Positions 39,001 through 60,000 of a DNA stretch of 64,000 nucleotides are shown here, piece by piece. Origin of the DNA: an uncultured Reyranella sp. GTDB lineage: Bacteria > Pseudomonadota > Alphaproteobacteria > Reyranellales > Reyranellaceae. Each line of letters starts with the position of its first letter. The first letter of the stretch is position 1. The stretch spans positions 70,008 to 134,007 of the forward strand of contig CAYQAY010000001.1 of assembly GCA_964415585.1 (NCBI GenBank). Direction: 5' to 3'. The position numbers were made by a program.

Positions 39001-42000
39001 GCGGAACTGATCCAGCGGATGCAGGGCGACGCGCTGGACATTCTCGGCCAGCGAATCCTCTTCCGCCGACACCTCGACGCCAGGATCGCGCACGATGCAG
39101 GGGATGAGCGCCGTCTTCGACAGGCGCTTCTGCCTGACCAGGCGTTCGAGGGCCCGGTAGCGGCGGCCGCCGGCCGGGATCTCGAACTGGCCGGTCTCGG
39201 CACCATTTGCATCGACGACCGGCCGGACGTTGAGGCTCTGCAGGAGCCCGCGCCGGGCAATATCCTCGGCCAGGTCCTCGACCGAGACGCCCGCCTTCAG
39301 ACGCCGGACGTTGGCCTGGCTGAGCGCCAGCTTGTTGAAGGGGATGTCGCGCGAGGCGCTGAGGGTGATCTTCTGAACGGTCTTTACCATGTGGTTACTC
39401 CGCGACGGACGGTCGGGAGACTCTCTCTCGACCTCCAATCCGTCACGAAACCGGCGCAGCCCTCTCGCTCTCGGCGCCCGGCGGAGTGCAAAGTGGAAGG
39501 GGCGCCGGTCCGCCTTCTTCTTGCGCAAGGGACGTCACCAAAGGCGCAACCCTCTGTAACCGAAGGACCGCCTCGGGAGGCCACAGCGTCTGTAGGCGGC
39601 CGACTGGCCATTGCAGGAAGTACCTGCGATCAAAGTTCGCCCAGTGATCCTTGCTCGAATGGACTGGATCGGGACAACGACGATGGACAACAGGCTGCTC
39701 AGTTTTGAGTTACCCAACTTTGCCTTCTAGCCTGATAATCGGTCCCGTACAGAATTTGGAACGCGTCTGTGCGAAGGTCCTTATGCGTCGATGATCGCGA
39801 ATGTACAGTCAGCTTATTTTTCTTATCTCAAGGGGGGCAGCCCCGAGGCGAGCAAAGAGTTTCTTCCGGCAGGTGAGAACGATGATCTGGACCTTCTCGC
39901 CTGCCCGCATCAGGACGTCGAACATGCTTTCGATTCGGTCGTCATCGGAAAACGCCAAGGCATCGTCGAGGATCACAGCTGCCGGGCGGTTCTGACCGAG
40001 CAAAAGTTCTGCGAAGGCGATGCGGGAAAGGACAGCGAGCTGTTCCTGCGTGCCGCCGCTTAAGACGCCGTAGTCTTCAGTTTGCCCTTCGCGCTTCAGG
40101 CCGGCGACGCCCAGATTCTCGTCGAAGACGATGTCGCTGTCTGGCAGAATCATCTTGAGATAGGGCTGCACACGCTGCACGACAGGCGCCAAGTAGCGGT
40201 TCTTGGCCTCACGTTCGGCGTCCTCGAGGGTTTCAAGCAGCAGCTGAAGCACGGCAGCTTCCTGCTCGTAGCCAGTGACGGCTTCCCGCATCCGATCACG
40301 CTCTGCCTGCTTGGTCAGAAGCAGCTCTTCGACGCCAAGGCCTTCCTGGGCCTGAATGAGCGCTGTCAGCCGCGTGACTTCGTTGGTCAGCGTCGCCACC
40401 GCACGCTGGTGATTGGCGGCGGCGGCTTCTAGGCGTTTGATGCGCGCGTCGATCGCTTCGACGCTCTCGCCTTGCGACTTATCTTTTTCGGTGTGATCGC
40501 GTTCCTTTTCATCGGCGTCGCGCTCCAGCTTCGCTGCGTCCTCGGCCAGCGTGTCATCACTGAGGTTCGCGCGTGCGGCAGCGAGATCAGAGTTGCGGGT
40601 ACCAATCGTCGCCATCAACGCGGTCGAACGATCCTCGTGCTTGCGCAGAAGCTTCTCGGCGTCTGCAAGTGCCGTTTTCGGCCCTGAAAGCGCGGCCTCC
40701 TGCGTTGCGATCTCTGAGGTCAGTCGATCGTCCTCCGCGCGCACTGTCGCGACTTCTGCGGCGAGGGCATCGTCTTGCGGAAGAATCTCAAGCGCGAGCG
40801 CCTCGAGTTCGGACTTCAGTCCGCCGCGTAACGCGCTAACGTAGGTTTTGAGTGCCTCCAGTCCCGGCGCGAGTTTCTTCTGCCTGTTACCTGGGGCCAC
40901 ATTGGACAATTCCTTTCGGATCTGAGCCAGAGCGCGCTCATGCTCCCTGCGCCGCGCGGCGGCTGTGCGCGCAGCAGCAAGATCGGAGACGCCGGCCGCG
41001 CTCAAGGCCGTAGCGAGCGAGTCCTCAGCATCCTGACGCCGCTTGAGCAGCGCCGAGAGATTCTTGATCTGCGGCTCCACCACGATCGATCCAATCCCCT
41101 CGATCGCGATGGCCGTCGGTTCGAGGATTGCGAGCGCGTTTTCCTCGCAGCCAAGTGGACGCTGGTCAATTTGAATGCGTCGGCGCGAATCATCGAGAAC
41201 CTCGAACGAGACCGTAGTCGAGACAGCATTTGCCGCAGCCTCGGCGGCAGACATCTCAGTGATAGCGTCCTCGATGCGCCCGACCTTTTCGTCGGTGGCG
41301 GCGATCGCGGCAATCGCCTCGGTCAGCCGAATCACCTCGGATTCGAGTGCGCCGGCCTGATCGAGCACGGCTTGGTGCTGACGGACTTCTGCATCCAGTG
41401 CGACTGCACCGCGGACACGCTCGAGCCTCCGTCCCTGTGCGGCGCTGGTACGCGCCTCGGTCCGTAACGCCGCGAGTGTGCGTTCCGCCGCATCGAGTGT
41501 CGCTTTCGCTTCGTCTTTGGCGGTACGAGCGGCGGCGACGTCCTGCCCCAAGGCCTCGCGCTCCACCTCCAGCGCGGTAAGATCGGCTATGGTTTTGTTG
41601 CGATCATCGAGCGTCTTGCGTGTCGTGTCGGCGCGTTCGCGTGCAAGCTTGGCGGCGTCGCGGGCGCGCGCGATCTCAGCCGCAATGGTTGCCGCCACGA
41701 CGCGCTTTTCGCGCTCGCGCTCGAGTTCGGCGCGATGCGCAACATCGTCCCAGCTCGTTTGCGCGTCCTTCAGCTCGCGGCGGTTCGAAGCGAGCGAGAT
41801 CAACAATTCCGAGACGCTTTTCGCCTTGGTCTCCAGCTCCGCGATTTCGGCGTCGAGGAGAGCGAGCCGGTCCGCGGCATCCTTGAACTTGCCACGCGGT
41901 CCTCTTTGACTCTGAATCGCGTCGAGTGCCTCTCGCACGGCTTTGGGAATCTTCTGTCCACGCGCGCCGCCGGTCACCATGCCAACTTGCGCTTCAAGAC

Positions 42001-57000: not shown

Positions 57001-60000
57001 CAGCGATCGACGATCGGCTTGACGCGCTCCAGGAAGGCATGAGTCAGACGGCCCAATACCTCCGGATCATTGTCGTGCGACCGAAGTCGTATGAGATGGG
57101 CCAGGGTTTCGAGACGCCACTCGCGGCTAGGCCACTGATTGTGGGGCAGGCACCGGGCCACGGAAATTTCGGCCTCGACGCTCTGGTGCCGGCAGTAGGG
57201 CTCGCCCGCCTTGGTGCGACAGGTGAGCGCCGCCGCTGTAGGCGGCGGCTCATCCTGTGTCGGACCCGACGGGAGCTTGTTCATGCGGGGCTCAAGACGA
57301 CCTTCGGGCCCACCGGAAATCGGCCGAGAGAATTTTTTTTGCCGCCCTACGGCTAATATCAGTCATCGCCCGCCGTCCAAGAGAGTTCAAGTGCTTAGCT
57401 GGCGGGGGATAGTCATCGTTCCGCACGCAAAGTCCAAAGTGGCACTTCGCCGCTAGGTTGAGTCCTATTTCGCCACCACAGCCAATGACGAGTCAAGAGA
57501 AGGAATTGAATCGCCACCAGAGCGCCCACCACCTCCCTATAGTTCGGGCTCAGCTTGGCCGAGCAGCCGTTGCGCTAAGGGAGGCACTGCCTCGGGTCGC
57601 ATCCGGTCCGAAGCGAAGCCCACCGCCAGCAGCTCACGAGGCAGGTAAGGGTCGTACTTCTCGTGAATGAGGTTTCCGACGGTCAACGCCAGATAGACAG
57701 CATCGGGCGCCGGCGCCTGCTCGAAGCTGCGCAGTGCCGCGACGACCTTATCTGCCGGCGTGCGGTCAGCTTCTAGCACCACCCCGCGCGTTGAGATGAC
57801 GAGCCCGCTGCCTTTGAGGGCCAGCGCCAAGGTACCGAGCGCCACCGAGCCGGCCCACGGAAAGAGAAAGGTATCGCCGTCGATCTCGACGATGTTTGAC
57901 CGGCGCAGGCCAAGTCGATCAAATTCACCTCTGGCCTCGCCAAGGAGGCGTGCGGCAGTTTCGTCGAGAAAAGACGGCACGTCAGTGCTGAGGTAGACCT
58001 CTCGCATCTCCGCCGCGACGACGTCATGCATGTCGCCGCCCTCTCCCCCGAACATGGGCGGCACACCCAACCGAGAGGGGCTTACCACCACGACCTTCTC
58101 GCGATCCCTGACCTCAATCACCTGCCAGCGCCGCCCTGAGAAGATGATGGTCATATCGGGGACTAAGACCGTGAGTATGGGCAGTGTCCCCAGTTCCCTT
58201 TCTTCGCAAACGACACGAAACTCGTCGGGGCTCTGAAACACGGCATAAAAGTCGTAGTGATCGACAATGCGCTCCCCGACTTCGCCCAACAGCAGGGTGC
58301 CGTCGGGGGCTTGTTCGATGAGTCGATTCTGCTCGTCGCCGAGCGCGCGCAAGATGCCCGCAAACACGTCGGGTGAAACTGCCGCAAAGGCCCCACGTTT
58401 GGCCAAAAGCTCATAGGCCCGGGCGGCGGTGATCCCGCCATATTGCGCGATTACGGCCAAAACTTGCTGCGCCAGGGTCGATAAGTGAAGGGCATCAACA
58501 CGTGGCGGCTCGCACCACCGCCTTGCTAGCAGTTGCACCATGGCGATGGTCTGAACAAGCTGACAGCGCAGCCTGTCAGCCGGATGAAGGTCATCTGAAA
58601 GCTGTCGCTCGGGCACATAGAGCCTGATCACCGCCGGCTTATCGCCGCGCCGCCCCGACCGCCCAAGGCGCTGGCGAAGCGATGCGACAGTCCAGGGTGC
58701 CCCGATCTGGGCCACGTTCTCGACGGCGCCGATGTCGATGCCGAGTTCGAGCGTCGAAGTACATACCGCGCTGGTCGGCAGCTTGCCCTCTTTCAGCCGC
58801 TCCTCAACGAACTCCCGATGTGTGCGACTAAGATTGGCATGATGGGCAAAGAATTCCTCCGGCACGCCCAACTTTTCTGACGCTTGGCGCAGCAAGTCGG
58901 CATAGGCTTCGACGTTGGCCCGCGACCCGGCGAACACCAGCCCGTTTTTGCCCCTGAGGGTTTCGAAGACGTGGCCCGCGATCTGCCGCATGTAGAACAG
59001 GTCATCTTCTTCATCAGCGTTGGCGTCATTATCAGATCCCGGAGCCTCATTCTTCTTTTCATAGCCACGCACTTGCAAATGCACGGTCGCTCCACCGGAC
59101 GCGCTCTCCAAGATCACGACATCCTCGCCCCCGCCCGGTCGCAAGAACTCGGCCGCCAGGCCCATGTCGCCCAGTGTGGCCGACAGCCCCACCCGACGCA
59201 CCAGCCGGCCGGTCGCGGCTTCAAGCCGGTGAAGCAACGACTGCAGCTGCTTGCCCCGTTCTTGGCCGATAAAGGCATGCAGTTCGTCGATGACAACGAA
59301 CTCAAGAGTTGAGAAGAGCGCCGCAACCTCGGCGCCACGGCGAACGAACAAGGCCTCCAGAGACTCGGGTGTGATGAGCACTATCCCATCGGGCTGCTTG
59401 CGCGCCCGCGCCTTGCTCGATGCCGAGACGTCGCCATGCCACCGATAGACCGGCAGTTCAGCCAATTCGCAGAGCTCATCGAGACGCCTGAACTGGTCGT
59501 TGATCAGTGCCTTCAACGGGCTGATGTAAATCGCCTTGAATCCATGCCCAGGCGCATCGGCAACACGAGAGATGATGGGCAGAAAAGCCGCCTCGGTCTT
59601 ACCGCCCGCTGTCGCGGCTGCGATAATAATGTCGGCCTCGGTATCCAGAATCGCCGGTATGGCCTGTTCCTGAATGTCGCGCAGCTCGCGCCAGTCCTTT
59701 TGCCAGATCCACCGCCTGACCGGCTCGCTGAGGCGGTCGAAGGCGGTAGACGACTGGTCAGAGCTTGAAGGCGGTGAGCTGGTCGCCACTGGTTGCCCCC
59801 TGCCCAGCCGCGGACGCTACGGTCGCCGCCAGCTCGGCCTCGTCAGGCGTTGCCGTCGTGATCTCAACGCCGTCTAGCAATGTCTGCCACTGCGTGCCGG
59901 GGTTCTGCTCAAGCACCGACAGCAGATTGACGAACGCCGTCACCGTGTTGCGAGGTGTGCGAAAGTACGCATCGCCGATCTTCAGCGAGCAGTGCGTCAT

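Follow-up and report, generated by a model that had tools for sequence, protein, structure and literature searches.

A run of eleven minus-strand open reading frames (ORFs) on contig CAYQAY010000001.1, from an uncultured Reyranella sp., places a Type I Bil operon (bilABCD), which encodes a ubiquitin-like (Ubl) conjugation system, between three genes upstream and four genes downstream. The genes are numbered g1 to g11 along the minus strand, from position 57284 down to position 39809 of the 64,000-nucleotide (nt) stretch that was analyzed (the window), and all were found at the coordinates given in a preliminary description, which had taken them as one composite system coupling Ubl conjugation to nucleases (Table 1). 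The comparative data largely refute the composite reading, and it appears reasonably probable that the array is a defense island resembling an integrative and conjugative element (ICE), composed of independently mobile modules that share one orientation, in which g1-g2-g3-bilABCD is the only conserved unit and g1 to g3 control bilABCD. The link between the three-gene cassette and Bil is strong, widespread, and apparently undescribed, and comparison of sequences suggests that this three-gene partner most likely switches Bil on.

All window proteins were used to search 80 genomic loci with BilD relatives (41 to 75% BilD identity) from Alpha-, Beta-, and Gammaproteobacteria, Planctomycetota, Chloroflexota/Dehalococcoidia, Acidobacteriota, Heliomicrobium, Nitrospirota-like bacteria, and other lineages. 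Sixty-eight of these loci include at least 5 kb of DNA upstream and were regarded as informative. A full-length homolog of g3, sharing 34 to 72% identity, was identified directly upstream of bilA and on the same strand in 62 of the 68, and homologs of g1 and g2 precede g3 in all 59 loci analyzed by profile search, as well as in L058, L064, and L077. The earlier view that a front end of sigma-like, XRE, and ImmA-UvrD genes belongs with Bil is therefore borne out across many phyla. Downstream of bilD the gene content is variable, with no ORF family present in more than 8 of the 80 loci in an all-against-all ORF comparison. As regards recurrence of the entire neighborhood, the seven-gene set of g1 to g3 and bilABCD recurs, whereas the eleven-gene set does not, given that none of the 80 loci has an AddB-like gene and four have an SbcD-like gene. 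Within the array, the seven-gene block g1-g2-g3-bilABCD is the only unit predicted to be evolutionarily conserved.

The Type I gene order Ubl-E2-JAB-E1, previously assigned to the window, was confirmed there using PADLOC and is identical in 80 of 80 loci. Collimonas Bil has anti-phage activity through Ubl conjugation onto phage proteins (Type I Bil: Millman 2022, Hor 2024), and the Collimonas locus in our sample (L079) shows the same seven-gene layout. These papers treat Bil as a self-contained set of four genes, whereas the unit in the window has three upstream genes more. Because E. coli is protected when it expresses only bilABCD, under an inducible promoter (Millman 2022 preprint), g1 to g3 are not required for the effector chemistry. 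No BilD relative was found in viral contigs.

The product of g3 combines a Peptidase_M78 domain (PF06114; residues ~54 to 174; Pfam, 6e-16), a superfamily 1A helicase of the UvrD/PcrA type (~197 to 833; Pfam, 5e-58) whose best PDB sequence matches are PcrA/UvrD at 1e-59, and an iron-sulfur (Fe-S) nuclease-like domain of the RecB/AddB type (PDDEXK_1; ~889 to 1109; Pfam, 3e-13). Across 60 homologs, the HExxH motif (H83, E84, and H87), Walker A (214 to 223), the DEYQD motif (419 to 423), and four cysteines (C898, C1099, C1102, and C1108) are each conserved in at least 93%; helicase motifs III to VI are also kept, and the cysteines are arranged as in the AddB/Cas4 Fe-S nucleases. In the same homologs the (D/E)xK motif varies (QRLK in the window, RRLR, or ERLR), with D1004 and Y1034 of the nuclease-like domain (positions 52508 to 52830) kept beside the four Fe-S-type cysteines. 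Conservation of HExxH and of the helicase motifs indicates that the protease and the motor are under selection, and because (D/E)xK is not conserved, the C-terminal domain is likelier to be a DNA-binding module than a nuclease.

Loss of the canonical (D/E)xK from g3, whereas g8 and g9 keep DxK and QxxxY, bears on an alternative that we consider unlikely, namely, that g3 is chiefly a second effector, a helicase-nuclease attacking phage DNA beside Bil, with g1 and g2 regulating the whole seven-gene block. Such a role would fit the conservation of all superfamily 1 helicase motifs and the four Fe-S cysteines, the precedent of UvrD-type helicases as effectors in Gabija and in defense-associated reverse transcriptase (DRT)-type systems, the matches of g3 to the PADLOC models GajB and RTasHel (1e-59 to 6e-62), and a prophage end (L089, described below) that carries the trio without a Ubl operon. 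It is at odds with the conservation of the M78 HExxH motif, which implies selection on the protease, and with loci in which a small stand-alone Peptidase_M78 gene fills the slot of g3 (L022, L042, L048, and L078), accompanied in two of them by an XRE helix-turn-helix (HTH) partner. A promoter-like element before bilA further implies that the effector operon is under separate, sigma-dependent control.

Neither g1 nor g2 of the window has a match at default thresholds in Pfam, NCBIfam, or PADLOC. Among 29 g2 homologs, 11 match HTH_31/HTH_3. An AlphaFold2 model of g2 (pLDDT, 78) comprises an N-terminal three-helix domain, a central five-helix HTH of the XRE type, and a C-terminal helical hairpin, and its top Foldseek matches are all XRE HTH proteins: the 434 repressor, the CapH N-terminal domain (NTD; 7t5u), C.AhdI, DdrO, and SinR. 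Superposition of the HTH on the CapH NTD gave a TMt of 0.79 and a root mean square deviation of 2.0 Å (E, 0.08). The g2 gene adjoins g1 in all loci analyzed, and its product is a candidate protease substrate, anti-sigma factor, or repressor. For g1, the extracytoplasmic function (ECF) sigma model TIGR02937 sigma70-ECF is matched by 19 of 29 homologs (best, 9.6e-10) and Sigma70_r4_2 by 12 of 29. The best PDB match to a profile of the g1 family is E. coli sigma-E (1or7; E, 0.01), spanning regions 2 to 4, and two homologs match the CAS_III-E_sigma model.

Two exact copies of a two-box element, ATTTCCGGT-N14-TCTTGA, are present in the window, one before g1 (P_g1) and one in the gap between g3 and bilA (P_bilA), and they are the sole matches in the 64 kb at two or fewer mismatches (0.04 expected). 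Upstream of bilA, the element is found at a distance of ~70 to 85 nt in most loci and ~125 to 145 nt in Dehalococcoidia-type loci, and most loci have an equivalent upstream of the g1 homolog. The second box varies by lineage (TCTTGA, GGTTGA, CGATT, TTCGCT, or CATCGCT) yet matches between both sites of one locus. When the regions upstream of g1 and bilA were compared using a two-box mask, no more than 1 of 100 same-locus controls reached the observed match in 37 of 60 loci (median z, 3.8). In the window the -10-like box ends so close to the ATG of g1 (7 nt; positions 57285 to 57292) that the g1 mRNA may be leaderless.

The two-box is absent from all four loci that have a divergent M78 gene (L022, L042, L048, and L078). 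Three of these (L022, L042, and L048) have instead a sigma-70-type promoter, TTGACA-N17-TA(A/C)GAT/TAATAT, ~150 nt upstream of bilA, which is never found at that place in g1-bearing loci, and those Dehalococcoidia relatives of the M78-gene loci that have g1 show the two-box. This partition of promoter types, together with the sigma model matches of the g1 family and the span of its PDB match over sigma-E regions 2 to 4, makes it decidedly improbable that g2 is a classical CapH-like repressor with the two-box as its operator and that g1 is another HTH regulator or an accessory protein, not a sigma factor. The boxes, a 9-mer and a 6-mer separated by 14 nt, moreover repeat each other in neither direct nor inverted orientation, and their geometry fits that of -35 and -10 sequences. 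Consistent with a repressor are the XRE HTH fold of g2, closest to those of CapH, DdrO, and the 434 repressor, the palindromic core CCGG in the first box, and the weakness of the sigma model matches of g1 in the window itself.

The preliminary description had read the array as one transcription and translation unit. This is contradicted by the internal element in the g3-bilA gap: given a conserved promoter-like sequence within these 96 nt, the array is probably not one transcription unit.

Downstream of P_bilA, the bilA leader contains a predicted hairpin with a minimum free energy of -23.3 kcal/mol (z, -3.6), and none of 200 shuffled sequences was equally stable. For the alpha-1 group, a consensus of 12 pairs was obtained, 5 of them with compensatory changes. 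In 23 of 60 loci, pairing of the Shine-Dalgarno (SD) sequence with an anti-SD scores above at least 95% of shuffled sequences. Many proteobacterial loci have such SD-sequestering leader hairpins, which were identified in the window and in L001 to L010, L021, L050 to L056, L060, L063, L066, L075, L079, and L080. The anti-SD co-varies with the SD between lineages (CCTCTTG/CAAGAGG, TCCTTTC/GGAAAGGA, and CTTTCTC/GAGAAAG). In Dehalococcoidia and Planctomycetota loci the hairpin did not reach significance, and Rfam returned no match to it. As cross-lineage alignment of leaders using MAFFT and RNAalifold yielded no consensus structure, and a covariance model built from the alpha-1 leaders recovered just 13 closely related leaders, we regard the hairpins as analogous SD-masking structures of many lineages and not as members of one conserved RNA family.

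Full-length g3 is missing from 6 of the 68 informative loci. In the four mentioned above, the divergent Peptidase_M78 gene upstream of bilA encodes a stand-alone product of ~200 to 270 amino acids (aa), and in two of them (L022 and L042) an HTH_3 gene adjoins it, giving a CapH/CapP-type pair. The fifth, L076 (428 to 8356), has g1 and g2 homologs directly upstream of bilA. Farther upstream, L076 has a DEAD-type helicase ORF of 1,753 aa and a protease-like Nal1_C gene, which may substitute for g3 as a sensor. The sixth, L034, lacks g1 and g2, retains a two-box, and of g3 has a C-terminal remnant of 295 aa; it thus looks to be decaying. A search of viral contigs with g3 returned mainly generic phage UvrD helicases, the sole true full-length relative being encoded at a prophage end in IMG/VR (L089, 1 to 4316). 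There, a truncated sigma region-4-like ORF, a g2 homolog, and a 1,148-aa M78-UvrD-PDDEXK protein are followed by convergent P2-type baseplate (tail) genes, with no Ubl operon. The g1-g2-g3 trio may have begun as a switch of mobile elements or may also serve as one. Taken together, the loci without g3 and L089 indicate that the cassette fills a regulator slot, is accompanied by a promoter type of its own, and is able to occur in the absence of Bil.

A near-identical island, L085 (2740 to 9991), shares 96% identity with the window in SngB and SngC and 90 to 92% in g8 to g11. At its center are c1 (g1 hidden Markov model [HMM], 6e-32), c2 (g2 HMM, 2e-24), and c3, an M78-UvrD-PDDEXK protein with 34% identity to g3 over 1,121 aa, after which a Bub-type operon (Multi_ubiq, DUF6791+ThiF, and BubE) takes the place of bilABCD. 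Thus, everything from g1 through the final Ubl gene has been exchanged together, with the nuclease modules left in place. Use of the cassette with Bub or with non-Ubl effectors is represented by single examples, L085 and L089, respectively.

We propose the following mechanism. The g1 product would be a dedicated ECF-type sigma factor recognizing the two-box before its own operon and before bilA, and the XRE-fold protein g2 would keep the system off as an anti-sigma factor or repressor. Sensing would fall to the g3 product, whose UvrD-type motor and nuclease-like Fe-S domain would engage single-stranded DNA or DNA ends arising from infection or DNA damage; this engagement would activate the N-terminal M78 metallopeptidase, which would cleave g2. 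Cleavage would free g1-dependent transcription of g1 to g3, a positive feedback, and of bilABCD. In some lineages the leader hairpin, by masking the bilA ribosome-binding site, would serve as a second brake. It is tentatively suggested, as a possibility that we hold at somewhat less than even confidence, that g1-g2-g3 represents a new class of immune switch, in which a helicase/degenerate-nuclease DNA sensor uses its fused M78 protease to cleave an XRE-fold anti-sigma-like protein and so frees a private ECF sigma factor for Bil or Bub and, in prophages, for other targets, and that it is the missing native trigger of Bil.

Several points weigh against this proposal. The promoter, the sigma activity of g1, the g1-g2 interaction, and the cleavage of g2 by g3 are all steps that we infer. 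In the window, g1 matches sigma models weakly (RpoH, 0.01; HTH_36, 0.02), so that its assignment draws on the homologs. The HTH matches of g2 are weak by E-value, at just 0.02 to 0.3 because the domain is small, and family searches revealed no similarity of g2 to known anti-sigma domains. The two-box could be an operator, not a promoter. A fusion of 1,100 aa that includes a helicase would be costly for a pure regulator, and g3 may also act on phage DNA; nuclease activity of its C-terminal domain on DNA is doubtful, as the (D/E)xK motif is not conserved. Lastly, with regard to the boundary of the unit, SbcD-like genes near bilD in 4 of 80 loci and in the window are commoner than a random gene family would be, and there may be some preference for SbcD-like/Bil co-location.

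The genes downstream of bilD lie outside the conserved unit. The AddB-like label previously given to g8 was upheld, as its AlphaFold2 model (pLDDT, 85) best matches the AddB chains 4cej_B/3u44_B (E, 2e-16), and D763-x-K765, Q784..Y788, and C626/C878/C881/C887 are invariant in the family. The g9 product reaches 151 bits against the addA_alphas cutoff of 860.75, and g8 has no NCBIfam match. A housekeeping AddAB was rejected for g8/g9 on these scores and on context, and g8-g9 is a putative accessory paralog of AddAB. In common with AddAB/AdnAB, the pair has an AddB fold with DxK, QxxxY, and four Fe-S cysteines (g8), a UvrD-type helicase with a RecB-type nuclease (g9), and overlapping genes; it differs in that g9 falls far below the AddA equivalog cutoff and in belonging to a small alphaproteobacterial accessory family. 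At an E-value of 1e-5 or lower, 171 proteins from Alphaproteobacteria were assigned to the g8 family among 8,000 candidates scored, and the relatives examined sit inside defense islands, ICEs, or plasmids.

The AddAB-like pair is found with neither Bil nor the SbcCD-like pair in L081 (Sinorhizobium fredii) and in L082 and L083 (both Brevundimonas), where it lies beside bacteriophage exclusion (BREX) genes and a WYL/BrxR regulator. WYL-domain (BrxR/CapW-like) regulators precede the pair in L081 (8527 to 9444) and L082 (8945 to 9958), with the BREX genes PglZ and BrxL beside it. As these genes adjoin it, the stand-alone pair is a candidate defense or anti-plasmid module, for which there is no PADLOC model. 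In L087 the pair lies amid a PIN toxin-antitoxin, an integrase, a restriction-modification system, and a MobA relaxase, with no Bil. Two further loci (L084 and L086) have Bil and then the AddAB-like pair, with no SbcCD-like genes. In the window, L084, and L086, the pair begins 24 to 31 nt after bilD and has no adjacent WYL regulator, which makes read-through from P_bilA plausible. The arrangement is, however, evolutionarily shallow and restricted to loci with a BilD identity of at least 74%, and read-through would represent local docking, not a conserved partnership.

For g10 and g11 the earlier SbcCD label holds loosely, as neither the SbcD cutoff nor the CxxC hook is matched. The g10 product has a Metallophos domain (7.5e-7) and scores 48.1 bits with TIGR00619 against a cutoff of 77.65, and its motif I reads SDLQ by eye versus the DxH of SbcD/Mre11. 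The g11 product has the ATPase head motifs SMC_N/AAA_23/SbcC_Walker_B and, by eye, no CxxC zinc hook in its sequence. A canonical SbcCD was rejected for the pair because g10 falls below the SbcD model cutoff and the zinc hook is missing. In L085 the g11 homolog is split (148 and 723 aa). The BilD loci with an SbcD-like gene are L038, L059, L063, and L065; in L038, L063, and L065 the SbcCD-like genes directly follow bilD, and there is no AddAB-like pair. In the Bradyrhizobium loci L063 and L065 the SbcD/SbcC-like pair is 69/61% identical to g10/g11, whereas BilD is just 43% identical, and in L063 this difference points to independent transfer of the pair. The g10-g11 pair is a predicted module that moves alone, repeatedly landing next to Bil.

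Nine of the ten junctions in the array are as the preliminary description gave them, including the 4-nt overlaps of g1/g2 and g2/g3 and the 96-nt gap between g3 and bilA. The bilD/g8 junction had been reported as a 14-nt overlap and is a 31-nt gap: because g8 homologs are ~894 aa long and begin MEL(Y/F)FG, the start of g8 is placed at the GTG at 49514, with AAGGGGGAGGGG, a strong SD, just before it. The earlier remark that the array contains no convincing terminator stands, with 7 terminator-like sites versus 11 ± 4 expected, and simple sigma-70 promoter and terminator scans of positions 39500 to 57700 yielded nothing exceeding chance. The minus-strand run is, however, wider than the eleven genes, extending over 16 consecutive genes from 32712 to 63889. 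Directly upstream of g1 on the same strand are all three genes of a Shango system, SngA, SngB, and SngC, with overlapping gene ends. The same three Shango genes are present in L014, where they lie downstream of the Bil unit. Downstream of the array are genes for a 756-aa ParB_N protein and a 1,466-aa strawberry-notch-type helicase (AAA_34 and Helicase_C_4). Genes of these two types are typical of the ICE backbone. Since a strawberry-notch-type helicase is also encoded near Bil in L006, L057, and L086, Bil-bearing defense units appear to ride on ICEs. The order of the island is Shango, g1-g2-g3 with bilABCD, the accessory AddAB-like pair, and the metallophosphoesterase/SMC-ATPase pair. As the 16-gene run includes an independent Shango system, co-directionality and short gaps are a property of the island and no evidence of one machine.

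This context also bears on the composite reading, under which one functional 11-gene system would use Ubl conjugation to tag or regulate the nucleases encoded by the AddAB-like and SbcCD-like genes, or the DNA on which these act, and which we now regard as very unlikely. Its attraction lies in the co-directional genes and tight junctions, the gap of only 31 nt with no detected terminator between bilD and g8, the recurrence of the bilD-AddAB-like junction in L084 and L086, the renewed proximity of AddAB-like and SbcCD-like genes to a Ubl-type system in L085, and the SbcD-like genes near bilD in four loci. Co-directionality, however, extends to the Shango and ICE genes, and the low counts of AddB-like and SbcD-like genes in the BilD-selected loci do not suggest a fixed partnership. 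The modules are also separable: no Ubl system accompanies the AddAB-like pair in L081, L082, L083, and L087, the pair follows Bil without SbcCD-like genes in L084 and L086, the identity values in L063 indicate independent transfer of the SbcCD-like pair, and bilABCD by itself confers defense (Millman 2022 preprint).

Table 1. Features of the gene array and its neighbors in the 64,000-nt window
Feature	Position	Strand	Description and basis
P_g1, two-box promoter-like element	57292-57320	-	ATTTCCGGT-N14-TCTTGA; ends 7 nt before g1 ATG
g1, ECF-type sigma-70-family-like protein, 263 aa	56493-57284	-	Homolog scans
g2, XRE-fold protein, 214 aa	55852-56496	-	Overlaps g1 and g3 by 4 nt
g3, M78-helicase-nuclease-like fusion, 1,115 aa	52508-55855	-	Pfam Peptidase_M78, UvrD helicase, and PDDEXK_1
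P_bilA, two-box promoter-like element in g3-bilA gap	52461-52489	-	Exact ATTTCCGGT-N14-TCTTGA
bilA leader hairpin	52421-52460	-	CCTCTTGC...GCAAGAGG with inner GGCGG/CCGCC stem; 3' arm contains SD
bilA, di-beta-grasp ubiquitin-like protein, 162 aa	51923-52411	-	PADLOC BilA 5.7e-48, full length 1-162
bilB, E2-like	51427-51918	-	PADLOC BilB 9e-61; Pfam DUF7665 (listed BilB-like) 2.6e-60
bilC, JAB/JAMM deubiquitinase-like	50955-51434	-	PADLOC BilC 1.5e-59; Prok-JAB 2e-5
bilD, E1-like, 3' end of conserved unit	49546-50955	-	PADLOC BilD 1e-154
g8, AddB-like, neighbor outside unit	46830-49514	-	C-terminal PDDEXK_1; AlphaFold2 and Foldseek
g9, UvrD and PDDEXK_1, neighbor outside unit	43681-46830	-	Pfam; TGATG overlap with g8
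g10 metallophosphoesterase and g11 SMC/ABC-type ATPase, neighbors outside unit	39809-43647	-	Loosely SbcCD-like
SngC (Shango, neighbor)	57537-59789	-	PADLOC 1e-273
SngB (Shango, neighbor)	59758-61092	-	PADLOC 5e-175
SngA (Shango, neighbor)	61085-63889	-	PADLOC 5e-89
ICE-type neighbors, two genes downstream of array	32712-39528	-	ParB-like and strawberry-notch-type helicase

The closest parallel to the cassette is CapH/CapP, a DNA-damage-responsive regulator of cyclic oligonucleotide-based antiphage signaling system (CBASS), Type II Bil, and Bub operons. In both arrangements, an M78 metallopeptidase gene neighbors one for a protein with an XRE fold, predicted in the case of g2, and the two precede an operon for Ubl conjugation or immunity. 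The HTH of g2 superposes on the CapH NTD, g3 has the intact HExxH expected of such a protease, and the divergent M78 gene, with an XRE HTH in L022 and L042, takes the same slot in the four Bil loci that lack g1 to g3. In Type II Bil operons, CapH (XRE) and CapP (Peptidase_M78) are encoded upstream (Chambers 2023 preprint). The cassette differs from CapH/CapP in that the g3 protease is the N-terminal domain of a 1,115-aa UvrD/Fe-S nuclease-like fusion, not a small stand-alone protein, that g1-g2-g3 are co-directional with bilABCD and not divergent, that a sigma-like gene is added and the target promoter is of the two-box and not the sigma-70 type, and that g2 has extra N- and C-terminal domains. 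ImmR/ImmA of ICEBs1 and DdrO/PprI (IrrE) of Deinococcus likewise pair an M78-family protease with an XRE-family repressor that it cuts after DNA damage, and DdrO is among the structural matches of g2. PprI is described as an M78 protease that senses single-stranded DNA and cleaves the XRE repressor DdrO (PMC10904395). These two pairs have no fused helicase/nuclease-like domain and no dedicated sigma factor, and they control the induction of a mobile element or a repair regulon.

In type III-E CRISPR systems, Csx30 is a binding partner of the sigma factor RpoE and is cut by the protease Csx29 (PMC9825189). An ECF-type sigma factor of its own, a partner that binds it, and a nucleic-acid-activated protease that cuts the partner (PMC9825189) would be common to that system and to the cassette, in which these roles are assigned by prediction. 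The protease is a caspase-like CHAT protein there and an M78 zinc peptidase in g3, sensing is by a CRISPR RNA complex there and would be by a helicase fusion in the cassette, g2 and Csx30 are not related, and the output of the cassette is a Ubl-conjugation operon. In the Bil/Bub literature open to text search (Millman 2022, Hor 2023/2024, Chambers 2023, Gong 2024, the CapK/CapS paper of 2026, Iyer 2006, and reviews from 2026; subscription-only papers were outside its scope), there was no mention of a helicase, sigma factor, or M78 fusion beside Bil, nor any account of what activates Type I Bil or of what it senses; the regulators named there are CapW/BrxR, CapH with CapP, and CapK with CapS. 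Pfam (2025 copy) and NCBIfam (2026) contain models for BilA, BilB, and BilD and none naming g1 or g2.

For the reading of genomes, the window cautions against taking tight co-directional runs in defense islands as single systems, as here at least four independent modules resemble one operon. Defense-system finders that report Bil as four genes overlook three conserved genes, and cloning bilABCD with only its "native" upstream DNA would leave out the likely sigma factor. If the proposed switch is correct, the family of damage- or infection-responsive protease regulators that includes CapH/CapP, ImmR/ImmA, and DdrO/PprI would be extended by a built-in helicase and a private sigma factor, a design resembling the protease-sigma logic of type III-E CRISPR. 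Bil is a model for ubiquitin-like antiviral conjugation in bacteria, and the cassette provides a candidate for its native switch and a testable pathway from sensor to transcription.

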